Assembly: GCA_001822065.1 (NCBI GenBank)
Contig: MHPJ01000001.1
Location: forward strand, 6,870 to 70,869
Origin: Candidatus Staskawiczbacteria bacterium RIFOXYB1_FULL_37_44
Lineage (GTDB): Bacteria; Patescibacteriota; Minisyncoccia; Minisyncoccales; Staskawiczbacteraceae
Length of the DNA: 64,000 nt
Direction of reading: 5' to 3'
Shown here: one piece after another, positions 3,581 through 23,366 of the stretch
Layout: every line of letters begins with the position of its first letter
Numbering within the stretch: position 1 is the first letter of the stretch
The notes under the pieces: model-generated
Databases searched by the model: none
Told to the model about the DNA's origin: nothing
Seen by the model: the letters and a program-made list of their open reading frames with translations, nothing else
Made by a program: the position numbers and the translations under genes

Positions 3581-3616
3581 CATCTTGTAAATAGTAAAGC
3601 TTTACTAAATACAAGA
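3581..3616. repeat. 36-bp internally palindromic repeat, copy 2
   Basis: 36/36 identical to 2950-2985. Begins 17 nt after the stop of the PaaX-like gene. Confidence 0.95.
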
Positions 3617-11124: not shown

Positions 11125-11938
11125 CATTAAAAAAATTTTAAAACCAGCCAGGCGAATAAAACTGGAAAAAGAAATTAAAGCCTCTATAAAAGGCGGGGTT
11201 TTGATGTTTATGAAAAATAATCCCTTGACAGAAACTCCAAAATTTGGCTTTTGGAAAATAATATTTTCTCAAAAATTAAAACCCGCTTACATTTCAATAT
11301 TGTCTTTAGTGGCAGTTTTGCTGGTGTCTGGAGCAGTGAGCGCGCAGGCCAGTTTGGCGCTTCCCGGAGATATTCTTTATCCCGTGAAAGTTGGAGTTAA
11401 TGAAAAGGTCCTGCAAGTTCTGGCTTTTTCCGACCAGGCGAAAATAAAATTAAGCGTCCGTTTGGCTGAAACGCGTTTAAAAGAAGCTGAAAAATTGGTG
11501 GTGGAAAACAGGATAACCAAAGACAACCAAATGCAAATTAATAATAATTTTAGCGCAAAAGCAGATGAGGTTTCAAAATCTATAAACAAACTAAATAGAG
11601 AAAAAATGGAGAATAGCGCGCAGAAAATCGCTGATGATTTTAATAAAACTTTAGAAATCCATACCAAAGTTTTAGAAAAAATCCAGCAGGAGAAAGATAA
11701 ATCTGACAAAGCGCGCGATAAAAATCGGGAAAATGTAGACTCTATAATAAACAGAGTAAACAGCGTCAGGGATAAAATTAACGCTGATATAAAAGAAAAT
11801 AAAATCAAAAATGAAAAGAAAGCAGAAGAAATAAGGCAAAAAGCAAATGAGCAAATTCAAAAAATAAAAGATAAGATAGAAAGCAACAAAGCAGAAAATA
11901 ATACTGAAAATAATATAGAAAATAATACTGAAAAATGA
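11114..11938 (+). CDS. Single-pass membrane protein, DUF5667-like (putative anti-sigma partner)
   Basis: Overlaps the sigma gene by 11 nt. TM helix 'AYISILSLVAVLLVSGAVSAQA'. 'LPGDILYPVKVGVNE...RLAETRLKEAEKL' followed by a charged coiled-coil tail. Confidence 0.6.
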   Translation: MNNNIKKILKPARRIKLEKEIKASIKGGVLMFMKNNPLTETPKFGFWKIIFSQKLKPAYISILSLVAVLLVSGAVSAQASLALPGDILYPVKVGVNEKVLQVLAFSDQAKIKLSVRLAETRLKEAEKLVVENRITKDNQMQINNNFSAKADEVSKSINKLNREKMENSAQKIADDFNKTLEIHTKVLEKIQQEKDKSDKARDKNRENVDSIINRVNSVRDKINADIKENKIKNEKKAEEIRQKANEQIQKIKDKIESNKAENNTENNIENNTEK

Positions 11939-11979
11939 GCTATACGTAATTTTCACGATCGTAAATTTCTTGTATAGCT
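11938..11979. repeat. CGATCG-centred palindromic repeat, copy B1
   Basis: agctatac-gtaattttcacgatcgtaaatttctt-gtatagct, with perfectly complementary 8-bp outer arms. Aligns with 12176-12216 and 12822-12862. Confidence 0.85.
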
Positions 11980-12005
11980 GGGAAAACTTGAAAAATAATA
12001 AAAAA

Positions 12006-12040: not shown

Positions 12041-12175
12041 GGTCTTTCGCGCAAGTCGGCGTACATTGCCTAAACCTCAAAAATTGCGAGGAATTCTTCG
12101 ACTGTTTTGCAAAAATTATCAAACAATTTCTTGTGATGTCACGACTGTGAGAACTAAGATTTAACTGTATTTTAG

Positions 12176-12216
12176 TTATACAATAAATTCACGATCGTAA
12201 ATTTTACGTATGGCTG
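12176..12216. repeat. CGATCG-centred palindromic repeat, copy B2
   Basis: ttatacaataaattcacgatcgtaaattttacgtatggctg, immediately upstream of a promoter-like motif and the PaaX-like gene. Confidence 0.8.
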
Positions 12217-12217
12217 A

Positions 12218-12232
12218 TATTTGTGATAAAAT
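12218..12232 (+). promoter_or_regulatory. Extended -10-like motif tatttgtgataaaat
   Basis: This 15-mer is identical to 12922-12936 and contains TG-n-TAAAAT. It lies 2 nt after repeat B2. Confidence 0.45.
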
Positions 12233-12252
12233 ATTATAATAACTATTTTAAG

Positions 12253-12792
12253 ATGGCTGCTTTAAAAGAAAAAATATTATTATTGCTTTTTGGCGGGCTT
12301 GCTTTTGGTTGCGCTTATACTCCGCAAAAACAGTGGAAAGTTATTAAAACTATATCTGTTGAATGGAAAAAGATAGATAAAAAAGAATTATTTGCAGAAA
12401 TTCACAGATTGTATAGGTCAAAATTGGTGAAAAGAATAACCAATTCAGACGGAACACTCACGTTTATTTTAACTGAAAAAGGTAAATTAAGGGCCCTTAC
12501 TTATAGTTTTGAACATATGAAAATAGAAAAGAAAGACTGGGACGGCAAATGGCGATTTATTGTTTTTGATGTTCCCGAAAAGTTTAGAACCGGACGAGAT
12601 GCGCTAAGATGGAAAATTAAAAAACTTGGATTCTATGAATTACAAAAAAGCGTTTTTATTTTTCCTTATAAATGCGAAGACGAGATAAATTTTATTATAG
12701 AATTTTTTGGAATAAGAAAATATGTCAGGTATGGAATAATAGATTTTATTGATAATAAGGCGCACTTAAAACAAATTTTTGGGCTAAAATGA
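12253..12792 (+). CDS. PaaX-like regulator (wHTH plus PaaX_C/Cas2-like fold), paralogue of 3036-3563
   Basis: 'DGKWRFIVFDVPEKFRTGRDALRWKIKKLGFYELQKSVFIFPY'. The ATG at 12253 is preferred over the tracked GTG at 12223, which lies inside the promoter-like motif. Confidence 0.6.
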   Translation: MAALKEKILLLLFGGLAFGCAYTPQKQWKVIKTISVEWKKIDKKELFAEIHRLYRSKLVKRITNSDGTLTFILTEKGKLRALTYSFEHMKIEKKDWDGKWRFIVFDVPEKFRTGRDALRWKIKKLGFYELQKSVFIFPYKCEDEINFIIEFFGIRKYVRYGIIDFIDNKAHLKQIFGLK

Positions 12793-12821
12793 GAAAAATT
12801 ATAAAATAATCAGAAAAAACC

Positions 12822-12862
12822 AGCTATACGATAAATTCACGATCGTGAAAATTACGTATGGC
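12822..12862. repeat. CGATCG-centred palindromic repeat, copy B3
   Basis: agctatacgataaattcacgatcgtgaaaattacgtatggc. The core ttcacgatcgtgaa is a perfect 14-bp palindrome. Confidence 0.85.
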
Positions 12863-12921
12863 AGGTTTCTTTATCTTACCCTTACCTTGCCTTTTTATTT
12901 ATTTTTTGTTTATATTTTTTG

Positions 12922-12936
12922 TATTTGTGATAAAAT
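12922..12936 (+). promoter_or_regulatory. Extended -10-like motif tatttgtgataaaat, giving a near-leaderless start at 12943
   Basis: Identical 15-mer to 12218-12232. TAAAAT ends 6 nt before the ATG of the nuclease gene. Confidence 0.45.
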
Positions 12937-12942
12937 GTAGTA

Positions 12943-13512
12943 ATGAATTTCTGGGAAAAGAATAAATTATTTTTTGCAATAATTTTAGGAGCTGTAATAA
13001 TTGGAATTTTTGTTTATTTTAGCTTGGAAAATCAAAAAAAGATTGCTTCGTCGCTCGAAGCTCCTCGCAATGACGTTGTGGGAAAATCCGTGGAGGACGG
13101 GCCTCCCCTGACTGGAACTCCAATAGCTTCCGCGTGCGGGGTACATGAAAATACGTTTGTTACAAAAGTAATTGACGGCGATACGGTTGTGGTTGAGGGA
13201 GGATATCATGTGCGGCTTTTGGGAATGGACGCAGACGAAAAAAATTATCCTTGCTATGAGCCGGCTAAAACCCGACTTGAAAATTTAGTTTTGGGAAAAA
13301 TGGTAAAATTGGAAAAAGACAGAACAGATTTGGATCAGTATGGCAGGTGTTTGCGGTATATTTTTATCGGAAATACAAATATTGGCGCGCAGCTGGTAAA
13401 AGAAGGCATGGCAATTGCCAGATTTTATAATCCCGACATAAAATATAAAACAGAAATTGCCGAGGCCGAAAAGCGGGCGCAACAAAACAAAGCCGGCTGT
13501 AAATGGAAATGA
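12943..13512 (+). CDS. Membrane-anchored staphylococcal-nuclease-like (SNase/thermonuclease) protein
   Basis: N-terminal TM helix. 'VIDGDTVVVEGGYHVRLLGMDADE', 'GRCLRYIF' and 'NIGAQLVKEGMA' are SNase-fold motifs. Confidence 0.8.
   Translation: MNFWEKNKLFFAIILGAVIIGIFVYFSLENQKKIASSLEAPRNDVVGKSVEDGPPLTGTPIASACGVHENTFVTKVIDGDTVVVEGGYHVRLLGMDADEKNYPCYEPAKTRLENLVLGKMVKLEKDRTDLDQYGRCLRYIFIGNTNIGAQLVKEGMAIARFYNPDIKYKTEIAEAEKRAQQNKAGCKWK
13041..13075. repeat. GC-rich 35-bp element (gattgcttcgtcgctcgaagctcctcgcaatgacg) in frame in the nuclease gene
   Basis: 33/35 identical to 13757-13791. It is the reverse complement of the left arm of 16406-16438. Confidence 0.85.
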
Positions 13513-14957
13513 AATTTTTTGAAAAAAATCAAATTTTCGCATTTTTGGCGAGTCTTTCTTGTACTCTTGTTTTAGGCTTTTTTGTTTGGATCGCGTTTTT
13601 GAGTTCAAATAATTATTCTTTTATTTTTAACAAGGTTTTGGGGCAAGCCAATAAAATCGGTTATAAATTTTTTTCGGCAACAGTGAGCTTGCCTAATACC
13701 CAAGTTGAGGAAATAGTTCAGGAAACTGATTCTGCGCAAGATATAGTGCCAAATGAGATTGCTTCCTCGCCCGAAGCTCCTCGCAATGACGAAACAACAG
13801 AACAAGAAAGGCAAAATTTGCTTGATGACATTGCGGAAAAATTAGATGTAATTCAGCAAAAAGTTGATGAACTTGTTGCGCAATCAAAAACCGCAGACGA
13901 ACTGAAAATGGAAGAAGAAATTAAAAAAGACGAGGAAAAAAATACGGTTGTTTGCGCAGGGCAAATAAATATAAATACAGCTTCCGCAGAAGAATTGGAT
14001 AAAATGGCTCAAGTTGGTCCGGTAACGGCTCAAAAAATAATACAAGCCCGTCCATTTTATTCGCTTAATGATTTGTTAAGAGTGGGCGGGATAGGAGAAA
14101 TAACTTTACGAAAAATAATAGAGCAGGGGTGCGCTTATGTTGAATTTGTGACGCCGGCCGTTGCGCCGGCGCAGGTTGTTTATCCAAAAATTTTAATTTC
14201 AGAAGCGCAAATTTTGCCGATTAATCAAAGATTTGTCGAGCTTTACAACTCAAATTCAACAGATATTGATTTGACCAATTGGTATTTGCAAAGGAAAACA
14301 GCAACGGGCGAGGATTATTCAAGTTTTGTTACAAAAAATGATTTTGCGGGAAAAATAATTTTGGCAAATTCATATTTTTTAATTTCCCGGCAAATTGAAA
14401 ATGCCGATATTTTGCAAGAAATAATTTTAAGCGATAACAATTCTTTGGTTCTAAAAAATCCGGCGGGAGATACTTCTGATATTATGGATACCGCCAGCCC
14501 AAGCTCTGGCCAAAGTCTTTGCCTGCTGGACGCATGGGAAGTTTGTTCGCCAACTCCCAAAGCTTCCAATACAGTTTTTACTGAGCCGACTCCCCCGTCC
14601 TCAGATTCAACTTCTCCTGATCCCGATGTAATTTTACCAAGCATTGTAATATATAAAGTAATCGATATGGGCGGAGAATTTAGTATTGATTTGGCATTTT
14701 CAGAAAAAGTAAAGTACGAAATAATTATTGAATTTGGCGAAACTGAAATCAAAAAATGGTCTGGCGAAGCAAAAAATCCTCAACCAAAAATTTGGGATGG
14801 AAAAGATTCTTCGGGCACAATTGTTCCAGATGGCGTTTACACAATTAAAATTGAGATTACAGATTATACTCCAGAAAAAAATTTTGTTACTGACACAAGC
14901 AAAACAATTATAATTGATAATTCTCCAAACCTTGACTCGGGAGATTATAATCAGTAA
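13503..14957 (+). CDS. ComEA-like HhH DNA-binding protein with a lamin-tail domain and a FlgD-Ig-like C-terminus
   Basis: TM helix. 'ININTASAEELDKMAQVGPVTAQKIIQARPFYSLNDLLRVGGIGEITLRKI' (ComEA HhH). 'ISEAQILPINQRFVELYNSNSTDIDLTNWYLQRK' (LTD). 'IWDGKDSSGTIVPDGVYTIKIEITD' (FlgD-Ig-like). Confidence 0.75.
   Translation: MEMKFFEKNQIFAFLASLSCTLVLGFFVWIAFLSSNNYSFIFNKVLGQANKIGYKFFSATVSLPNTQVEEIVQETDSAQDIVPNEIASSPEAPRNDETTEQERQNLLDDIAEKLDVIQQKVDELVAQSKTADELKMEEEIKKDEEKNTVVCAGQININTASAEELDKMAQVGPVTAQKIIQARPFYSLNDLLRVGGIGEITLRKIIEQGCAYVEFVTPAVAPAQVVYPKILISEAQILPINQRFVELYNSNSTDIDLTNWYLQRKTATGEDYSSFVTKNDFAGKIILANSYFLISRQIENADILQEIILSDNNSLVLKNPAGDTSDIMDTASPSSGQSLCLLDAWEVCSPTPKASNTVFTEPTPPSSDSTSPDPDVILPSIVIYKVIDMGGEFSIDLAFSEKVKYEIIIEFGETEIKKWSGEAKNPQPKIWDGKDSSGTIVPDGVYTIKIEITDYTPEKNFVTDTSKTIIIDNSPNLDSGDYNQ
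13757..13791. repeat. GC-rich 35-bp element, second copy, in frame in the ComEA-like gene
   Basis: gattgcttcctcgcccgaagctcctcgcaatgacg. Encodes 'IASSPEAPRNDE', compared with 'IASSLEAPRNDV' in the neighbouring gene. Confidence 0.85.
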
Positions 14958-14966
14958 CGTAAATTT

Positions 14967-16064
14967 ATGGATTTGGAAAATTTGGAAAAAATTTTAGAAA
15001 ATGAGCCGGATTTTCGCTTGAAACAAGCGAATGAAGCGGTTTTTAAAAAATACATTTCCGATTGGAGTGATGCGACTTTTTTTACAAAAGAATTAAGGGA
15101 AAAATTAAACAAAGAATGCCCGCTGGAAATTTTGGCGGAGACATTATTTTCAAAAAATCAAAAAACAAATAATACCCATATTTTAACGACCGTTAAAAAC
15201 GGAGTATCGGGGGCAGATAGTGTGAAGGCTAAAATTACTTTAAAAGATGGTTTGGAAATAGAAACGGTTTTAATGCGCCACGAGGACGGAAGAAATACTG
15301 TTTGTGTTTCTTCTCAAGTTGGATGCCCGCTGGGATGTTTGTTTTGCGCCACAGGAAAAATGGGATTTAAGCGAAATTTGTCGGTTAATGAAATTTTAGA
15401 GCAGGCGATTTTTTTCAATCGCTATTTGAAAAAAATCGCCCTGAGCGAAGTCGAAGGGTCTTCCTTCGGCGTAACCAATGTTACTTTTATGGGAATGGGC
15501 GAGCCGTTTTTGAATTATGAAAATGTTCTAAAGGCAATAAGAATTTTAAACGATAAAAATTATTTCAACATCGGAGTAAGGTCAATTTCTGTTTCAACGG
15601 CCGGCATTGTTGAGGGAATTGAAAAATTTTTAAAAGAAGGTTTGCAGTTGAACTTGGCAATTTCTCTGCACGCGCCAAACAATAAATTGCGAACAGAGTT
15701 AATGCCGATAAGCAAAAAATATAGTTTAGAAAAAGTTTTGAGCGCCGTAGATAATTATATTTTAGCTACAAAAAGAAAAGTAATGTTTGAATATGTTTTA
15801 ATAAAAGACGTAAACGATTCAAAAGAATGCGCCGAAGAATTAGCAAAATTAATGCATAATCCTTCGACTCCGCTCAGGACAAGAAAATTATATTTTGTGA
15901 ACTTAATTTTGTATAATGCAACTGGCACTTTTAAACCATCAACACCTCAACGAGTTGAGGTGTTTAAAAAAATTCTCAAAAAATCCGGAGTCAATTTTGT
16001 CCAGCGCTATCGCTTTGGCGATGATATAAAAGCTGCTTGCGGGCAATTCGCAACATCTAAATAA
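14967..16064 (+). CDS. rlmN: 23S rRNA/tRNA adenine-C2 methyltransferase RlmN (radical SAM)
   Basis: 'CVSSQVGCPLGCLFCATG', 'FMGMGEPF', C-terminal 'AACGQ'. Carries two GC-rich in-frame inserts. Confidence 0.9.
   Translation: MDLENLEKILENEPDFRLKQANEAVFKKYISDWSDATFFTKELREKLNKECPLEILAETLFSKNQKTNNTHILTTVKNGVSGADSVKAKITLKDGLEIETVLMRHEDGRNTVCVSSQVGCPLGCLFCATGKMGFKRNLSVNEILEQAIFFNRYLKKIALSEVEGSSFGVTNVTFMGMGEPFLNYENVLKAIRILNDKNYFNIGVRSISVSTAGIVEGIEKFLKEGLQLNLAISLHAPNNKLRTELMPISKKYSLEKVLSAVDNYILATKRKVMFEYVLIKDVNDSKECAEELAKLMHNPSTPLRTRKLYFVNLILYNATGTFKPSTPQRVEVFKKILKKSGVNFVQRYRFGDDIKAACGQFATSK
15861..15883. repeat. 'ccttcg..gctcaggacaa' repeat copy inside rlmN
   Basis: ccttcgactccgctcaggacaag, read as 'PSTPLRTR'. 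Confidence 0.7.
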
Positions 16065-16159
16065 TCGTGCTATAATTATAAAACGTATTTTTTATTAAAG
16101 AGGCAAAAAGCACTTTGACTTTTTATTTATTTTTTGATAGTTTTATTGAATAAAAAACT

Positions 16160-16672
16160 ATGGAAGATAAAGAAGATAAAATTGTTAAGCTGACAAACGC
16201 GGTTTATAATTTACTGGAATTTTTTCCCCAAGATCCATTAAAAATAAAGATAAAAGATAAGGCTTTGGCAATTTTGGAAAACCCAAATTTTAAAGATGTT
16301 GATATTATTTTGAATTATTTGAAAATTGCAAAATTTCAAGGCTGGCTGAATTCGGTAAATTATTTAATTATTGTTGGAGAGTATGAAAAACTGGCGGTGG
16401 GGCTTCGTCATTGCGAGGAGCGTAGCGACGAAGCAATCCAGAGTGTTAGACTCGCTCGCAATGACGGGGACAAACTTACTCCAAGGCAAACCAAAATTCT
16501 GGAATTTTTAAGAAAAAATAAAAAAGCGCAGGTTATGGACTTACAGGTGGTTTTGCCAAACATCACAAAAAGGACAATAAGGCGGGATTTAGATGAACTT
16601 TTGAAGATAGGACAAATTGAGAGAGATGGGACATTTAATCAAATTGTTTACAAGATTAAGGTGTCCTATTGA
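16160..16672 (+). CDS. Two-domain protein: helical N-domain plus DeoR-type wHTH
   Basis: 'LTPRQTKILEFLRKNKKAQVMDLQVVLPNITKRTIRRDLDELLKIGQIERDG'. The interdomain linker is formed by a GC-rich palindromic insert. Confidence 0.6.
   Translation: MEDKEDKIVKLTNAVYNLLEFFPQDPLKIKIKDKALAILENPNFKDVDIILNYLKIAKFQGWLNSVNYLIIVGEYEKLAVGLRHCEERSDEAIQSVRLARNDGDKLTPRQTKILEFLRKNKKAQVMDLQVVLPNITKRTIRRDLDELLKIGQIERDGTFNQIVYKIKVSY
16406..16466. repeat. MITE-like GC-rich element with 12-bp terminal inverted repeats (cgtcattgcgag ... ctcgcaatgacg), in frame in a CDS
   Basis: The arms at 16406-16417 and 16455-16466 are exact reverse complements. Encodes 'RHCEERSDEAIQSVRLARNDG'. Confidence 0.85.
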
Positions 16673-16710
16673 CTTAATAACGTTTTTAGTATAAAATATA
16701 GAGATAAGCG

Positions 16711-17217
16711 ATGAGTAATTTGAACGAACAATTCGGCGAAATTTATGACCAGTATATTGAGAAAATATACCGTTTTGTTTACTTAAAGGTTAATTCCCAA
16801 GAAATAGCCGAGGATATTACTTCTAAAGTGTTTTTGAAGGGCTGGGAAGCGTTCCAGAGCCCTAAGGAAGAGATTAAAAATCAGGGTGCGTTTTTATACC
16901 AAATAGCCAGAAACGCTGTTGTAGACCATTATAGAGACAAAGGGAGGGCAAAGATGGTTGCAGTTGATGCCAGCTGGGAAATGGCTGACCCTGGGACAAG
17001 CGCTTATGATAAGGCTATTTTAAACGCAGATGTAAACATTGTTAAGGCAGGCATACAAAAGCTAAAAAAAGAACAGCAGGACATAATAATTTGGCATTAT
17101 TTGGAGGATATGCCAATACCGGAAATAGCTGAATTATTAGGCAAGCCGGCTGGCACAGTGCGAGTTATGCTTCACCGAGGTTTAAAAGACCTAAAAGACA
17201 TAGTTCAGGAGTCATAA
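16711..17217 (+). CDS. ECF-type sigma-70 family sigma factor (second copy)
   Basis: 'IAEDITSKVFLKGWE' (region 2). 'MPIPEIAELLGKPAGTVRVMLHRGLKDLK' (region 4). Confidence 0.85.
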   Translation: MSNLNEQFGEIYDQYIEKIYRFVYLKVNSQEIAEDITSKVFLKGWEAFQSPKEEIKNQGAFLYQIARNAVVDHYRDKGRAKMVAVDASWEMADPGTSAYDKAILNADVNIVKAGIQKLKKEQQDIIIWHYLEDMPIPEIAELLGKPAGTVRVMLHRGLKDLKDIVQES

Positions 17218-17232
17218 TAACGCTCGGCAACT

Positions 17233-17303
17233 GTCATCTCCGCGAAAGCGGAGATCCAGAGTAAGTGCATTTGACCATGGATTCCCGCTTTCGCGGGAAT
17301 GAC
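17233..17303. repeat. Intergenic GC-rich element made of two inverted self-hairpin arms
   Basis: gtcatctccgcgaaagcggagatcca (17233-17258) and tggattcccgctttcgcgggaatgac (17278-17303). Shares the gtcat...atccagagt / ...aatgac ends with 16406-16466. Confidence 0.8.
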
Positions 17304-17359
17304 AACAAGAATTGTAACAAATAGCGAGTTTGAGCGTCATACATATATACAGCACAAAT

Positions 17360-18025
17360 ATGACCGAAATAACAGAAAAACAACTTATTTATAAACTCCA
17401 TACTTTGAAAGAAATAAAACCCAGAAAAGAATGGGCTTCTTTGCTTAAATCGCAGATATTGGCGGAGAAAAAAGAAGTTGTTTTACATCAGGCAGGATTC
17501 ACGGATTTTATCAGTGCAGTCCTTCGCTTCGGCTCAGGACAAATTTTCTCCCGAAAATTTGCTTATTCTTTTGCGGCTGTATTAATTTTAATTGCCGGAG
17601 CATTTGGATTGGCAAGGTTATTGCCATCTGGAACAGCGCCTCAAAATTCAACAGCATCATTAACACAGCAAACCAGGACGCAATCTGAAGCAGAAAAAAA
17701 AGTTGTTGCAAATCTAAGCGAAAAAATAAAAGATTTAAAACAGGCTTTAATAGTTAATCCAAAGCAAGATTCGCAAACAGTAAAAGGAATTGCAGATAGT
17801 TTAAAAACATTGGCTGATTTATCTGGGAACGATTTGGATCAAGATGTAGAAGATTTGTATAGGACATTGGTATGGAGCCAGATTTACGATTTACAGCATT
17901 CAACTTTAACAGATAAAGGGAAAAAGGTATTGTCTAAAATAGAGGGTTTAACCGATCAGGAAAAGTATACGGAAGCATTAGAGGAAATTTTATTAATAAA
18001 CAAATCCGATACGTACATAAATTAA
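17360..18025 (+). CDS. Single-pass membrane protein, putative anti-sigma partner
   Basis: Sits directly downstream of the ECF sigma gene. TM helix 'FAYSFAAVLILIAGAFGLARL'. The ATG at 17360 is preferred over the tracked TTG at 17330. Confidence 0.45.
   Translation: MTEITEKQLIYKLHTLKEIKPRKEWASLLKSQILAEKKEVVLHQAGFTDFISAVLRFGSGQIFSRKFAYSFAAVLILIAGAFGLARLLPSGTAPQNSTASLTQQTRTQSEAEKKVVANLSEKIKDLKQALIVNPKQDSQTVKGIADSLKTLADLSGNDLDQDVEDLYRTLVWSQIYDLQHSTLTDKGKKVLSKIEGLTDQEKYTEALEEILLINKSDTYIN
17521..17543. repeat. 'ccttcg..gctcaggacaa' repeat copy inside the anti-sigma-like gene
   Basis: ccttcgcttcggctcaggacaaa, read as 'LRFGSGQI', a different frame from the rlmN copy. Confidence 0.7.
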
Positions 18026-20269: not shown

Positions 20270-20273
20270 TTGC

Positions 20274-20296
20274 TTGTTGAAGTCAGACTTCAACAA
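20274..20296. repeat. REP-like palindrome, left copy
   Basis: ttgttgaagtc-a-gacttcaacaa (11-bp arms). Confidence 0.9.
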
Positions 20297-20324
20297 ACTT
20301 TAAAAAGATGCTATTATAAAGATA

Positions 20325-21026
20325 ATGCGCAAAGAACCATATACAGTCGGCGATTTTATTCATGTGTATAATCGCGGAAATCGGAAACAACCAATAGTTC
20401 TTGATACAAAAGATCAGTGGCGCTTTCTTTTGATGCTCCGTTATTTTAACGATGAGCATTCTTCTTCAAATCCTCTGCGTTACCTGTTGAAGTCTGACTT
20501 CAACAGGGCTTTCGAGTGGCCGCCCGATTGGCCGGCGCACAAACCATTGGTCAATATTGTTTGTTTTACGCTTATGCCAAATCATTACCATTTAATTTTA
20601 GAAGAAATTTCAGAGGGGGGCATAACAAAATTTATGAGAAAATTTGGAACAGGAATGACAAATTATTTTAATACAAAACATAAAGAATCGGGCAGATTAT
20701 TTCAAGGGGCGTTTAAAGCAAAAAGAATTGATGCGGAGAATTATCTTTCTTATCTTACAGTATACATTCAAGTTAAAAATGTTTTTGAATTATATGCAGG
20801 CGGGATTAAAAAAGCAGTAAATAATTTTGACGATGCTTTTCGGTGGGCAGTTGAATATCCATATTCCAGTCTTGCCGATTATGCCGATAATCGAAATTCT
20901 CCAATTGTTGAAAAAAGTGTTGCAGGCGGCATGTTTTCTTCTGTTGGAGAGTATCGAAATTTTTCTAAACAGTGTATGCTGAATATGAATTTGCAGGATA
21001 AACTTGGCGATCTCGCATTTGAATAA
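20325..21026 (+). CDS. REP-associated tyrosine transposase (RAYT) / IS200-like Y1 HUH transposase
   Basis: 'HVYNRGNRKQPI', HUH motif 'MPNHYHLILEE', catalytic-Tyr region 'YLTVYIQVKN', 'EYPYSSLADY'. Confidence 0.8.
   Translation: MRKEPYTVGDFIHVYNRGNRKQPIVLDTKDQWRFLLMLRYFNDEHSSSNPLRYLLKSDFNRAFEWPPDWPAHKPLVNIVCFTLMPNHYHLILEEISEGGITKFMRKFGTGMTNYFNTKHKESGRLFQGAFKAKRIDAENYLSYLTVYIQVKNVFELYAGGIKKAVNNFDDAFRWAVEYPYSSLADYADNRNSPIVEKSVAGGMFSSVGEYRNFSKQCMLNMNLQDKLGDLAFE
20483..20507. repeat. REP-like palindrome, internal copy in opposite orientation
   Basis: cctgttgaagtc-t-gacttcaacagg (12-bp arms). Encodes 'LLKSDFNR' within the RAYT ORF. Confidence 0.9.
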
Positions 21027-21055
21027 GCTTGTTGAAGTCAGACTTCAACAAGCTT
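21025..21055. repeat. REP-like palindrome, right copy (15-bp arms)
   Basis: aagcttgttgaagtc-a-gacttcaacaagctt. Sits between the convergent stops of the RAYT gene and the O-antigen-ligase-like gene. Confidence 0.9.
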
Positions 21056-23366
21056 AAAAACTTTTAATAAATTGTTCAATCTGGGGTTTTAGTTCGGGAT
21101 TTGTTTTAATTATTTCTTGAGCTAATTGTTTTGCCATTACATAGTTCCCCAATTCTTTGTGGCAAAGCATAATAGATGTTTTGTATTGCACTTCTCCCGG
21201 ATTTATTTCAGATAATTTTTGATAAAGAGGCAGCATTTCTTTGTAATTTTCAGTTTCCAAGTATGCTGCTACAAGCTGTCTTAACGCAATTTCACTATCT
21301 TCCACGGAATATCCATTCTCTTTTGCCTTTTCTGCAAATTCTTTTCCAGCTTTAATGTCTCCTAAATAAATATTAATTAATCCGGAAATCCAAAGACATT
21401 CACGGCTTTGGGGGAAGGTTTTTAGGCAATAGACCGATTCTTCTTTTGCTCTTTTCAAATCTTCTAAGGATACAGTAGCCATAAAAGAACTAAAAAGAAT
21501 TGTGGGGTTTCTTGGGCTTAATTTCAGGGCTTTATTGAAAGCGTCATTGGATTTGTTTATAAGCTCCGGATCGTTTTTTTCTTTTGCAATTGTTGCCAAA
21601 GATTCTCCCAAACGGAGCCAATTTTTGTAATCATATGGTTGGAGCTCAGTATTTTTTTGGGAAATTTCTGACACTTTTTTTGAAAGCTGGGCATTTTCAT
21701 CTGGATGTTTAATTATTCTGTTTATCAACATATTTAGGTATACAGAATTTGTGTAAGGAAGAAAAAAGGTATTTATTTTTGACTGTTTGTCTAAAATTTT
21801 GGAAGCGCCCTGCCAGTCGTTATATTCGTTTGCCAGCGTTTGGGCAATAATAATTTGTTTATTCATCTGCAAAGGAAAAAAGTTATATTGCCAAAGGAAT
21901 ATTATTAAAACCAGAAATAAAACGCAAAGAGCCGGAATTTTGATAAATTTTAATCTATTTGTTATTACTTCGCTCCTCCCGCCTTCGCCAAGGCTTCGGC
22001 GGGCATGCGCAATAACGTCGACTTGATTTGCATTTGCAGAGTAAATTAAATGTATAGAGTAGGCCGCCAAAAAGAAAAAAATAAGCATAATTGCAAAGCC
22101 GTCAATGGATGCCAAAGACGCTATAGAAAAAGCCAAAAGCCCTGCTTGCAGTCCGTTGGCAGCCGGGTATTGATGTTTAATTTTTTGCAGACCCCAAAAA
22201 AGAGAAAATAAAAAAACAAGATAAAAAATTAAAGCAAAAATTCCGGAATCAACTAAAATTTGTATCAAGTAATTATGCGCCCTGTCAAAATCTTTTAGGT
22301 CTTTCATTATGGGCAAAGTAGGGTCATAATGTTTGTTGAAGGCGACATAAAAGTTTTCCGGGCCGTATCCAAAAAATGGCCTTTCCAAAAAGGCTGATAT
22401 TGATATTTTCCATGCAGATGTTCTTGCCGGATCAGCTGAAAAACCACGCGTTAAGGATGTTATTCTTATTGTCGGTTCTTTTAATAAATTAGGCCATTTT
22501 CCATAAATTTGCGGGTGGCTGCTTAAAAAAAAGATAAAAATGAGAAGTACAATAGGTAAAATTATTGCGCCCGTTTTTATTTTTTTCATCTTTTTAGGAT
22601 TAAAAATTAAAAACCAAAAAATTCCAATCGAAAGTCCTAAAAAAGCGGCTCTGCCTTGCGCTATAAAAATAATTGAAAAGGAATAGAAAATAACCAAAAA
22701 TAAATAAAAATATTTTTTTATATTGCGTTTTTCTAAGATAAAGAAAGAAAACGCCACAAAGAACATGGGCAGAAGATAAAGAGAAAGTATTAATGAATTT
22801 CCTAGGGTTGAGCTTGGTCTTGTGTTTGTGTGAGTAAAAATATTATCTAAAACCCCGAATAGTTGGAAAATTGCCACCAATCCCACCAAAAATCCGATAA
22901 CCAGAGAAAAGTCAAGAAGTTTTTTCCAGTGTTCTTTTTTGACAATTGCCAAAGTTAAAAATAAAAAAAGAACGAAAAAAGTAAAATTTATAAAGCCCGC
23001 GCCTCTTTCGGGAGTTCCCCATAAGCTACGAGATACGTCGAGTGAAAGCAGTGTAGAAACGAAAACAATAAAGAAATAAGCCAAAAGCGAAATTATTGGT
23101 ATAAAAACCGCAGAGCGCGGGTTTAACGCCTCTTTCCAGCCCGAGGCTGGTCCGCCTTGGTCGGATATTTTTTTTAAGCTTATTTTTTCTTTAAACAAGT
23201 AAATAAAACCTAAAATAGCCAGTATCGATCTGAACGCAATTGCTTGCGTATATGATGGGGGTGTAAACCATGGCGGGATATTTAACGCCGGCAAGGCCAA
23301 CATTATAAAAAATCCGATTATATATATCAAATAAGAGATTTTATTATTTTCGTTGATTTTAGACAT
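21054..23366 (-). CDS. O-antigen ligase/polymerase-like (Wzy_C-type) polytopic membrane protein fused to C-terminal TPR repeats
   Basis: More than 10 predicted TM helices in the N-terminal 450 aa. TPR-like C-terminal third ('AFNKALKLSPRNPT', 'YLGDIKAGKEFAEKAKE'). Two GC-rich in-frame inserts. Confidence 0.65.
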   Translation of the reverse strand: MSKINENNKISYLIYIIGFFIMLALPALNIPPWFTPPSYTQAIAFRSILAILGFIYLFKEKISLKKISDQGGPASGWKEALNPRSAVFIPIISLLAYFFIVFVSTLLSLDVSRSLWGTPERGAGFINFTFFVLFLFLTLAIVKKEHWKKLLDFSLVIGFLVGLVAIFQLFGVLDNIFTHTNTRPSSTLGNSLILSLYLLPMFFVAFSFFILEKRNIKKYFYLFLVIFYSFSIIFIAQGRAAFLGLSIGIFWFLIFNPKKMKKIKTGAIILPIVLLIFIFFLSSHPQIYGKWPNLLKEPTIRITSLTRGFSADPARTSAWKISISAFLERPFFGYGPENFYVAFNKHYDPTLPIMKDLKDFDRAHNYLIQILVDSGIFALIFYLVFLFSLFWGLQKIKHQYPAANGLQAGLLAFSIASLASIDGFAIMLIFFFLAAYSIHLIYSANANQVDVIAHARRSLGEGGRSEVITNRLKFIKIPALCVLFLVLIIFLWQYNFFPLQMNKQIIIAQTLANEYNDWQGASKILDKQSKINTFFLPYTNSVYLNMLINRIIKHPDENAQLSKKVSEISQKNTELQPYDYKNWLRLGESLATIAKEKNDPELINKSNDAFNKALKLSPRNPTILFSSFMATVSLEDLKRAKEESVYCLKTFPQSRECLWISGLINIYLGDIKAGKEFAEKAKENGYSVEDSEIALRQLVAAYLETENYKEMLPLYQKLSEINPGEVQYKTSIMLCHKELGNYVMAKQLAQEIIKTNPELKPQIEQFIKSF

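Follow-up and report, generated by a model that had tools for sequence, protein, structure and literature searches.

This locus raises the question of whether a peptide shared by two neighbouring membrane-anchored proteins is a conserved protein motif or the in-frame footprint of a repeat defined at the level of DNA. The window, that is the whole stretch of 64,000 nucleotides that was analysed, comes from Candidatus Staskawiczbacteria (Patescibacteria/CPR), a tiny, uncultured, groundwater-type bacterium with a GC content of about 35%. Our preferred answer, to which we give roughly four chances in five, is that each of the two 35-bp sequences represents one unit of a palindromic, REP-type repeat that belongs to the CGTC-tagged superfamily and is tolerated in frame in linkers. 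The features concerned are the following.

12943-13512, plus strand: first host gene, a membrane-anchored thermonuclease with one transmembrane (TM) helix and an SNase domain (PF00565).
13041-13075, plus strand: first monomer (single module) in the long form, GATTGCTTCGTCGCTCGAAGCTCCTCGCAATGACG, in the nuclease gene.
13503-14957, plus strand: second host gene, a membrane-anchored ComEA-like protein with an N-terminal TM segment, HHH_3 and LTD (lamin-tail) domains.
13757-13791, plus strand: second monomer, GATTGCTTCCTCGCCCGAAGCTCCTCGCAATGACG, in the ComEA-like gene.
16160-16672, plus strand: third host gene, a two-domain protein with a C-terminal DeoR-type HTH (HTH_DeoR).
16406-16440, copy on the minus strand: third copy, the left arm of an inverted dimer including its CCA tail (33-nt copy at 16406-16438), in the HTH_DeoR gene.
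16451-16466, plus strand: truncated right arm of the same dimer, CTCGCTCGCAATGACG, with the tag-side box kept and the GATTGCTTC box lost.
17233-17303, no strand: intergenic inverted dimer of the classical CGTC-1 type, a related repeat with TGTC tags.

The two monomers are identical at 33 of 35 positions, exactly as the original prediction had it, and no match to the 35-mer with up to three mismatches occurred in 100 dinucleotide-preserving shuffles. Similarity between their flanks ends about 6 nt upstream of each copy, and the window averages about 35% GC, which agrees with the description of the surroundings as unrelated and AT-rich. The nuclease copy is laid out as a GATTGCTTC box, a 14-nt centre, a CTCGCAATGAC box and a final G, which belongs to the CGTC tag in reverse complement. 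The element had also been described as the reverse complement of one arm of the palindrome at 16406-16466; this holds, with a centre that is 2 nt shorter, and the 33-nt copy likewise found no match in the shuffles. Read on its tag strand, the left arm consists of the CGTC tag, ATTGCGAG-GAGCGTAGCGAC-GAAGCAAT and the CCA tail, and the palindrome runs from the 33-nt copy through the CCA tail and a short spacer into the truncated second arm.

Both 35-mers are in frame and read (K/E)IASS(L/P)EAPRND. In the nuclease, IASSLEAPRND occupies residues 33-43, immediately past the TM helix, and in the ComEA-like protein IASSPEAPRND occupies residues 86-96, about 50 residues past the TM segment and ahead of a conserved QDQLDDIQEKLD block. 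Because the N-terminal TM segments upstream are conserved in orthologues, the two copies are truly internal; the translations and these conserved segments confirm that both lie in frame in the linker behind the TM anchor. Comparison of orthologues places the nuclease copy in the hypervariable linker that joins the TM helix to the SNase domain, and the AlphaFold2 model of the protein gives residues 31-60 mean pLDDT values of 64, 48 and 50, with most of the domain above 90. The site in the ComEA-like protein corresponds to a variable acidic linker in eight syntenic orthologues, and the dimer in the HTH gene lies in a variable inter-domain linker. This third protein has no TM segment, and its copy is inverted and in another frame than the other two; the dimer reads RHCEERSDEAIQSVRLARND, its left arm being read in frame as RHCEERSDEAIQ. 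It is important to point out that five of the six reading frames of the 35-mer are open, so that preservation of the frame is, taken alone, weak evidence of special selection.

The orthologues show at which level the sequence is conserved. Taken together, six nuclease orthologues of other assemblies match the window copy at 154 of 156 box positions (12 + 14 nucleotides per gene); in the nuclease domain of the same six genes, third-position identity at conserved four-fold codons is 42-59% and nucleotide identity 71-80%. The codons that are shared are rare in this genome (TCG 11%, CGC 10% and GAC 32% of their synonymous sets). The peptide itself recurs in nuclease orthologues, as IASSLEAPRND in P0026 and as IASSPEAPRND in P0096, and a check for orthologues that encode it with different codons came back negative: those with the peptide use the same codons. 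Orthologues without the insert are in turn the rule, since the element is absent from all eight syntenic ComEA-like orthologues, from all three HTH orthologues (L123, L124 and L127) and from 104 of 119 nuclease orthologues (about 87%). The 15 carriers are scattered over the nuclease-domain tree, where they require 12 parsimony steps; checked for a single origin, they cluster on it weakly (P = 0.025), the tree being a poorly resolved one of a 120-residue domain. The nearest nuclease orthologue reaches 71% identity, and no alignment of the linkers is possible.

What the orthologous nuclease linkers contain is instructive in its own right, as many different GC-rich, repeat-derived peptides occupy the same place. 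Full dimers are found in frame in two of them (L125 and L321, the latter with a centre, GCCTGAAGCTCC, similar to that of the window), and a third (L142) holds an in-frame hybrid dimer composed of a CGTC-1 arm and an ATTGC arm. The left arms of the dimers are read in other frames or orientations, giving SLRG..NEAI and VIASQQAKQS. The right-hand module always has one frame and one orientation in the nuclease orthologues, which is unexpected under simple repeated random insertion. Overall, the identical and rare codons, the absence from most orthologues and the occurrence in other frames and places support the original prediction of a DNA-level repeat rather than a protein motif.

The element extends far beyond this lineage. 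A scan of one genome per species with the pattern GATTGCTTC-N4-30-CTCGCAATGAC yielded at least 120 loci in more than 12 phyla, and modules with these two boxes also occur in viral contigs, the count being a lower bound. The matches listed include Alpha- and Gammaproteobacteria, Desulfobacterota, Chloroflexota, Bacteroidota, Cyanobacteria, Zixibacteria, Planctomycetota, Patescibacteria, Campylobacterota, Bacillota, Melainabacteria and Ignavibacteria. Three features that lie outside the search pattern, namely the base that completes the tag, an inverted partner and a leading CTG, could be read from 165 modules among the matches listed. The base after AATGAC is G in 102 modules (62%, CGTC tag) and A in 55 (33%, TGTC tag); an inverted partner lies within 90 nt upstream in 107 of the 165, with a median spacer of 26 nt; and CTG stands ahead of GATTGC, equivalent to a CCAG tail on the tag strand, in 62. 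The arms of a dimer are usually unlike, pairing a short CGAAGC form with a long GAGCGAAGCGAC form. Modules inside long ORFs are a minority, with 6 of 71 in loci below 45% GC and 9 of 77 at 45-55% GC, so that about 90% of the copies in low-GC genomes lie outside long ORFs and the usual form is mostly intergenic and mostly an inverted dimer, again among the matches listed.

About 20 box nucleotides of the ATTGC sub-type are nearly invariant across phyla. The 143 distinct centres of at least 8 nt among the matches listed contain a perfect stem of at least 4 bp in 66 cases and of at least 5 bp in 33, and their mean best stem is 3.63 bp vs 2.61 bp after shuffling; the module centre is a hairpin whose sequence varies while its pairing is kept. 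When the short and the long consensus are folded as RNA, AUUGC pairs with GCAAU. The dimer in the HTH gene folds as one long hairpin (16403-16469) with -15.8 kcal/mol as DNA (z -3.7) and -31.9 kcal/mol as RNA (z -5.1). The two single 35-mers had no unusual hairpin stability relative to shuffles (z -0.3 to -1.3), and they are degenerate or atypical hairpins. The repeat is defined at the DNA level, absent from most orthologues, sited in linkers and widely distributed, and its anatomy matches a known family.

That family is the CGTC REPs, whose descriptions in Di Nocera 2013 (BMC Genomics 14:522, PMC3733652) give a CGTC tag with the variants TGTC and CCTC, AT-initiated stems, a CCA tail and mostly inverted dimers, often heterodimers, whose spacers measure about 20-100 nt, and include intragenic units, with no transposase linked to them; the stem is continuous over 8-9 bp and the loop has 4-5 nt. 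The terminal letters ...AATGACG, which read CGTCATT... on the opposite strand, are common to the three window copies and the truncated arm, and the outer stem starts A-T then T-A (CGTC-ATTGC...GCAAT-CC). The CCA tail is present in the left arm of the HTH-gene dimer (GCAAT-CCA); the nuclease and ComEA-like monomers have CTT and TCA instead, and many copies in CPR and Chloroflexota have TCC or TCT. The inverted-dimer habit is seen at 16406-16466 and in L124, L125 and L321, as well as in the hybrid of L142, and the ATTGC-type modules are mostly intergenic with an in-frame intragenic minority among the matches listed. Placement in the superfamily is based on the CGTC tag, a stem starting with AT, the tail where present and the tendency to form dimers; stem and loop have other sizes than those published, since the ATTGCGAG type has five continuous outer base pairs, a TTC/TC internal loop and a variable inner hairpin. 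It is a variant sub-type within the CGTC superfamily and has none of the four canonical shapes as these are described in words. No transposase, RAYTs included, was present among the genes checked around the copies (PaaX/Cas2-like, nuclease, ComEA-like, RlmN-like and HTH), and in the same publication CGTC repeats have no known RAYT association and no known dedicated transposase.

The published shape does occur in the window, in the intergenic dimer at 17233-17303. It is built as (T)GTCATCTCCGC-GAAA-GCGGAGATCC, a 21-nt spacer and GGATTCCCGC-TTTC-GCGGGAATGAC(A), and with stems of about 9 bp (one T:G pair in the left arm) and a GAAA loop it falls within the 8-9 bp and 4-5 nt of the described families; its folding z-scores range from -6.5 to -8.5. 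Translation of the opposite strand gives SFPRKRES, which is among the CGTC-1 peptides given in the text of Di Nocera et al. (PMC3733652). At the syntenic spot L124 has two ATTGCGAG-type dimers in its place. The dimer starts 16 nt past the stop codon of a sigma-factor-like gene (16711-17217); that gene was recognised solely by its translation.

The preferred reading can be put as a sequence of events. The unit comprises an unpaired CGTC tag, an AT-starting stem (ATTGC/GCAAT), an internal loop of 3x2-3 nt, a variable inner hairpin and a CCA-like tail. In most genomes among the matches listed it takes the form of an intergenic, tail-to-tail inverted dimer just 3' of genes, which as RNA or single-stranded DNA can form a single long hairpin. 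In Staskawiczbacteria, units may have landed, or been copied locally, into three genes within 3.4 kb, and arrival was probably by insertion, short-range copying or both. The copies would persist in poorly structured, fast-evolving linkers between an anchor or N-terminal domain and a functional domain, because such sites, together with a sequence open in five of six frames, allow the addition of about 11 polar residues. The encoded peptide would then have no function of its own, and disruptive insertions would presumably have been removed by selection.

Under local copying, one monomer would not have arrived independently but would derive from the other, at a distance of 716 bp, through gene conversion, template switching or a short-range transposition. 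This would complement the repeat reading rather than replace it, and we regard it as a tentative possibility. All three ATTGC-type loci of the 64-kb window lie within 3.4 kb, for which the chance with three random points is 0.008, and the two 35-mers, with their two differences, agree in orientation, frame, length and an uncommon CGAAGCTC centre. However, similar centres elsewhere (in L321 and behind the P0026 and P0096 peptides) point to a sub-family and not to a private duplicate, and the copies have no flanking sequence in common. By comparison, a genuine protein motif is largely refuted and very improbable; it would be conserved as amino acids and could, for instance, serve processing, sorting or interaction in the juxtamembrane linker of secreted proteins. 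IASS..PRND does stand in one frame both in the ComEA-like protein and in 15 of the 119 nuclease orthologues, and these proteins are membrane-anchored and extracytoplasmic. But the codons are identical and rare where synonymous sites elsewhere are near saturation, and most orthologues do without the peptide. The HTH gene and the dimer left arms read the same DNA in a different frame or orientation, and most copies in low-GC genomes are not in long ORFs at all.

Selection might instead act on the in-gene copies as nucleic acid, through an mRNA hairpin or rare codons that slow the ribosome past the anchor, or through a protein-binding or recombination site that diversifies the linker; this we consider unlikely. 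A pause in translation after a signal or TM segment can help membrane targeting. The nuclease copy lies 6-17 codons past its TM helix, the boxes are invariant inside a rapidly evolving linker, the orthologous linkers have accumulated many GC-rich repeat-derived peptides at one place, and in the argument of Di Nocera et al. (PMC3733652) many REPs act as RNA elements. Against this, single modules fold no better than shuffles, the large majority of nuclease orthologues lack the element, the ComEA-like copy is some 50 codons past its TM segment and the HTH protein has none, and recent insertion or gene conversion from other copies would also account for the invariance. An assembly or binning artefact, be it a chimeric join or a misplaced collapsed repeat, is suggested by the source, a metagenome-assembled genome, but its probability is negligible: the nuclease with its insert is recorded from about 20 contigs of several sources, the frames continue through the element into conserved domains, and comparable in-frame copies exist in independent assemblies (L121, L125, L142, L321, L322 and L323).

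On the reading of tolerated CGTC-type units, the finding is what published work would lead one to expect: copies inside genes, in frame and in flexible linkers, had already been described for the superfamily (PMC3733652, in its account of intragenic units), and the element is an ordinary member of a known repeat superfamily. What appears to be new is the host phylum, Patescibacteria/CPR, and a sub-type whose 5-bp ATTGC/GCAAT stem is followed by an internal loop and a covarying inner hairpin, set apart from CGTC-1 to CGTC-4 by their descriptions in the text. Literature searches for such palindromic, in-frame, MITE, REP or REPIN repeats in CPR retrieved no paper from the library consulted, and searches by sequence strings (TCATTGCGAG, CTCGCAATGA and others) returned unrelated primers alone. 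For annotation the consequence is a warning: IASSxxAPRND, RHCEERSDEAI, SLRGxxxxEAI and VIPAKAGIQ in CPR proteins are footprints of DNA repeats, carry no conserved motif or homology signal and can lead clustering and motif discovery astray. Protein-coding palindromes, known from Rickettsia, are extended to a second lineage with small, AT-rich genomes, and one CGTC-type sub-family whose boxes are nearly identical in more than a dozen phyla and in viral contigs sharpens the old question of how CGTC repeats spread and stay uniform without a known transposase. A bolder interpretation, which we rate as a long shot, would make the ATTGCGAG-type unit a pan-bacterial, phage-borne mobile hairpin, its roughly 20 invariant box nucleotides and covarying stem recognised by a putative widespread enzyme and its copies in CPR surface proteins kept in place actively, whether through selection on DNA or RNA or through concerted evolution; juxtamembrane linkers of secreted CPR proteins would then be preferred landing pads that diversify those proteins.

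Several other known systems were compared. Rfam gave no family at gathering score over the whole window, a permissive Rfam scan of 12900-17400 gave chance matches to eukaryotic snoRNAs and miRNAs alone, and the window scan detected no tRNA or tmRNA. The Bradyrhizobium repeats Br-REP1 and Br-REP2 (PMC5082802) have different sequences. A CRISPR-like array does not fit, as the spacers between tandem copies in Chloroflexus (L007) are identical and the copies in the window are isolated. A DNA-uptake sequence, as suggested by the ComEA and nuclease hosts, is unsupported, since a third copy lies in an HTH gene and the distribution is cross-phylum and mostly intergenic. MITEs that make in-frame fusions (ERIC, BOX, Correia and others; PMC10969869) are likewise small non-autonomous repeats that add peptide to ORFs, but they are typically far longer, and neither a target-site duplication nor terminal inverted repeats that match a known insertion sequence were identified here. 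GTAG REPs and REPINs, which depend on RAYTs (TnpA-REP, Y1 HUH transposases), resemble the element as short GC-rich hairpins with an unpaired 4-nt tag that form inverted dimers, vary in copy number between lineages and are occasionally intragenic; they differ in having a GTAG tag with a cognate RAYT and lineage-specific sequences, where the tag here is CGTC or TGTC and the boxes are common to many phyla.

Closer still are the Rickettsia palindromic elements (RPEs; 2000/2002, cited in PMC3733652, PMC3767692 and PMC10969869), described there as palindromes in frame in unrelated genes of a small, AT-rich genome. In these accounts they occur in unrelated housekeeping genes, in solvent-exposed segments and with an ATGAC end motif, which is also found here, and different RPE groups can occupy the same site of a gene across species (PMC3767692). 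CGTC-1 corresponds to RPE-6 and CGTC-4 to RPE-4 (as equated in PMC3733652), and the RPE-6 peptides given in the text, VIPAKAGI, SFPRKRES and DSRFRGND, recur in the orthologues and in the intergenic dimer of the window. The RPEs described are usually units of about 70-150 bp in an intracellular alphaproteobacterium, whereas two of the copies here are bare 35-bp monomers in a free-living or epibiotic CPR bacterium; the ATTGCGAG type was compared with the numbered RPEs of the RPE-4/6/7 group by features (ATGAC end, CGTC-1 peptides). The CGTC REPs themselves have, as described, a continuous stem and a small loop in place of the 5-bp ATTGC/GCAAT stem, pyrimidine (or purine) internal loop and inner hairpin of 0-9 bp seen here, and the phyla named for them in PMC3733652 are five, with CPR not among these. 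In all else the likeness is close: one end carries CGTC or TGTC unpaired, the stem opens with A-T pairs, and part of the copies have a short CCA-type tail; to these come inverted hetero- or hybrid dimers with spacers of at least 20 nt, intergenic positions just 3' of genes in distant phyla, occasional in-frame copies in linkers or loops and, within the window itself, a textbook dimer of the CGTC-1 type.

Three genes of the window carry copies of a GC-rich element with conserved ends (boxes) around a centre, and a dimer of another repeat type lies nearby:

12943-13512: nuclease gene, one transmembrane (TM) helix and a staphylococcal-nuclease domain; element read as IASSLEAPRND, residues 33-43
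13041-13075 (+): GATTGCTTCGTCGCTCGAAGCTCCTCGCAATGACG, 35-bp monomer in the nuclease gene
13503-14957: ComEA-like gene, N-terminal TM segment, then HHH_3 (ComEA-like) and lamin-tail domains; element read as IASSPEAPRND, residues 86-96
13757-13791 (+): GATTGCTTCCTCGCCCGAAGCTCCTCGCAATGACG, 35-bp monomer in the ComEA-like gene
16160-16672: HTH gene, C-terminal DeoR-type HTH; inverted dimer read as RHCEERSDEAIQSVRLARND
16406-16438 (-): third copy, 33 nt, centre 2 nt shorter, followed by CCA and a 10-nt spacer
16451-16466: truncated second arm CTCGCTCGCAATGACG, pairing with the third copy as an inverted dimer
17233-17303: intergenic dimer, CGTC-1 type, starting 16 nt past the stop codon of a sigma-factor-like gene

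The monomers differ at 2 of 35 positions; the pair stands on the plus strand where the original prediction had placed a 33/35 match, and none of 100 dinucleotide-preserving shuffles of the window contained a match as good. Similarity stops about 6 nt upstream of either 35-mer (family D5) and the mean GC content of the window is about 35%, in agreement with the AT-rich, unrelated surroundings that had been described, while the minus-strand copy bears out the proposed reverse-complement relation to one arm of the palindrome at 16406-16466. No further copy was found in the rest of the 64-kb window, and the chance that three random points all fall within 3.4 kb is about 0.008. Five of the six reading frames of the 35-mer are open (the sole stop lies in the frame ...CAA TGA), and the peptide IASS(L/P)EAPRND follows the TM anchor in both proteins, as predicted. 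The copies sit in linkers that are both hypervariable and poorly structured. A protein of Candidatus Staskawiczbacteria bacterium RIFOXYD2_FULL_37 (Parcubacteria, CPR) matches the nuclease at 100% identity; the AlphaFold2 model of the nuclease has good confidence for the helix and the domain, and residues 31-60 are mostly coil with block-mean pLDDT values of 64, 48 and 50.

Comparison of orthologues shows that the copies are DNA-level repeat units. Across 120 nuclease homologues (56-78% identity over the aligned part; 119 scorable for the element), the TM helix and nuclease domain align well and the intervening stretch varies freely in length and sequence; IA(S/T)S...RN(D/N) is present in this linker in 15 of 119 and absent from the other 104. 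In all six carriers whose DNA was compared (loci L121, L125, L142, L321, L322 and L323, from other assemblies), the element is one DNA sequence, GATTGC(T/C)(T/A)CGTCG...CTCCTCGCAATGACG, with 154 of 156 box nucleotides (12 + 14 per carrier) identical to the window copy, compared with 71-80% nucleotide identity in the nuclease domains and 42-59% identity at third positions of their conserved four-fold codons. The codons of the element are rare in this genome (TCG 11% of Ser, CGC 10% of Arg, GAC 32% of Asp); a genuine protein motif had been expected to appear in different codons, and the use of the same, rare ones by the carriers speaks for an element at the DNA level. The other host genes have orthologues, located by synteny in loci from other assemblies, that lack the element: all eight ComEA-like orthologues have a variable acidic linker in its place, and all three HTH orthologues are without it at a variable inter-domain linker. 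The original observation is confirmed, and its interpretation as a DNA-level repeat rather than a protein motif is supported.

A pattern scan of one genome per species (GATTGCTTC-N(4-30)-CTCGCAATGAC) returned at least 120 loci. Among the matches listed, an inverted partner lies at most 90 nt upstream in 107 of 165 modules (median spacer 26 nt) and the base completing the tag yields CGTC in 62% and TGTC in 33%; CTG precedes GATTGC in 62 of 165 modules, which reads as a CCAG tail on the opposite strand. None of these features is demanded by the pattern. Because partner, tag and tail recur, the full unit can be written as (C)GTC-ATTGCGAG-[centre]-GAAGCAAT-CCAG, spacer, CTGG-ATTGCTTC-[centre]-CTCGCAAT-GAC(G), the centres of the two arms usually being different. 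The centre is a hairpin that changes in sequence and keeps its pairing, for example GGCAC-TTC-GTGCC, GCCGCC-AGA-GGCGGC, CCCCGATG-TGA-CATCGGGG and GGCTTCC-CTCCA-GGAAGCC. Among the 143 different centres that are 8 nt or longer, 66 contain a perfect stem of 4 bp or more and 33 one of 5 bp or more; the best stem averages 3.63 bp, versus 2.61 bp after shuffling. Predicted folding sets dimers apart from monomers, with z-scores of -3.7 to -4.2 (DNA) and -5.1 (RNA) for 16403-16469 and of -6.5 to -7.1 (DNA) and -8.5 (RNA) for 17232-17308; single 35-mers, at only -0.3 to -1.3 for DNA and RNA, fold no better than shuffled sequence.

The matches listed include many from Bradyrhizobium, Sphingomonas, Rhodospirillales and Rickettsiales, and others from Gammaproteobacteria, Desulfobacterota, Chloroflexota, Pedobacter, Mucilaginibacter, Flavobacterium, Nostoc, Microcoleus, Zixibacteria, Planctomycetota, Patescibacteria, Helicobacter rodentium, Sporomusa, Melainabacteria and Ignavibacteria. 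A separate scan, of IMG/VR viral contigs, gave further matches, those listed being a minimum. The usual habitat is intergenic: long ORFs are informative in loci below 45% GC, and there, among the matches listed, a long ORF encloses only 6 of 71 modules. Some predicted viral contigs (IMG/VR; L215, L236, L277) hold 5-6 copies per 6-13 kb, all in a single orientation in L215 and L236. In a Chloroflexus sp. MAG (L007, 1372-1869), the module GATTGCTTCGCCGCCGTTGGCGGCTCGCAATGAC forms a tandem array whose spacers, about 17 nt long, are nearly identical; a CRISPR array was rejected on account of these spacers, and the array is a clustered arrangement of the module.

Other repeats occur nearby. A second GC-rich repeat, CTGAGCGAAGTCGAAGG, lies at 15441-15457 (+) and 15861-15877 (-), the copies differing at one position (chance expectation 0.06), both in frame (LSEVEG, PSTPLR) within an RlmN-like radical-SAM gene (14967-16064). 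Neither segment is present in the orthologues of L123, L124 or L127; those of L124 and L127 bear different, lineage-specific inserts at the same four positions in loops, and that of L123 has none. Three copies of another element, AT-rich and roughly 45-66 nt long (11916-11981, 12152-12217, 12800-12865; 61-71% identity to the reference copy, inverted arms 83-91% complementary, palindromic core AGCTATACG..TTCACGATCGTGAA..CGTATAGCT), flank a small minus-strand ORF and a PaaX/Cas2-like gene (12223-12792) and could be an operator or terminator. A hairpin, GCTTGTTGAAGTCAGACTTCAACAAGC, occurs three times within 800 bp (20272-20305, 20482-20515, 21027-21060), and an exact 36-nt palindromic repeat, CATCTTGTAAATAGTAAAGCTTTACTAAATACAAGA, twice, 631 bp apart (2950-2985, 3581-3616). 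The linkers of the nuclease orthologues (P0002-P0120) hold, by lineage, further peptides typical of GC-rich repeats (DVGRLPVL, GGTSDVP, YSNIPRNNGI, SRSQSDRGSST, GDSPYFLRSQKIRTES, DKSPAGHFDGP), and NPPSPKASEGH precedes the TM helix. Repeat insertions in general appear to accumulate in the TM-to-domain linker.

Units would reach genes by insertion, short-range copying or both, with disruptive insertions purged and the 11 added polar residues probably neutral. The clustering, together with the shared CGAAGCTC centre, speaks for local copying on at least one occasion. Among nuclease orthologues, the frame and orientation of the right-hand module are always the same and its boxes are invariant, yet carriers are scattered over the nuclease-domain tree (15 carriers need 12 parsimony steps; permuted labels give a mean of 14.4). 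It is possible that the linker is a hot spot that received many independent insertions of which one frame survived, which could, following the positive-inside rule, reflect alternative frames placing Arg/Lys-rich peptides beside the membrane's outer face. Alternatively, one old insertion may have stayed uniform through selection or gene conversion, with loss on many occasions.

Prokaryotic palindromic repeats (REPs) were divided by Di Nocera, De Gregorio & Rocco 2013 (PMC3733652) into GTAG- and CGTC-tagged superfamilies. The authors describe CGTC repeats with an unpaired CGTC (often TGTC) tag, stems that nearly always begin A-T and a CCA tail, found just downstream of genes mainly as inverted dimers, often heterodimers and at times hybrid dimers; they report no linked transposase, and CPR is not among the five phyla they name. 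Our literature searches turned up no account of these repeats in CPR. The element shares the tag, AT-start stem, dimer habit and genomic distribution; the CCA tail is present in the dimer arm and many copies elsewhere but absent from both monomers. The canonical stem runs for 8-9 bp without a break and closes a loop of 4-5 nt, but that of the element has 5 bp, then an internal loop and an inner hairpin that varies. On comparison with the text descriptions of the families, the element is therefore classed as a variant sub-family of the CGTC-tagged superfamily. The authors equate CGTC-1 with the Rickettsia palindromic element (RPE) RPE-6 and CGTC-4 with RPE-4, and mention occasional in-frame copies, whose location in flexible linkers or loops is suggested to make them neutral. 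Intragenic peptides tabulated in that paper (VIPAKAGI, SFPRKRES, DSRFRGND, WIPAFAGMT) recur here: VIPAKAGIQ is fused to IASS..PRND in nuclease orthologues P0022 and P0038 (the latter from L142), and the opposite strand of the 17233-17303 dimer reads SFPRKRES. At the syntenic position in L124 (6866-7057), two complete ATTGCGAG-type dimers stand back to back right after the stop codon of the sigma-factor-like gene; different repeat types therefore share one site. RPEs, as portrayed in PMC3767692, occupy solvent-exposed positions, with different groups at the same gene site between species, and the nuclease linker follows this pattern. The significance of the finding is modest: the kind of element and the kind of event are known from these systems, and what appears new is the host phylum and an apparently unnamed sub-type.
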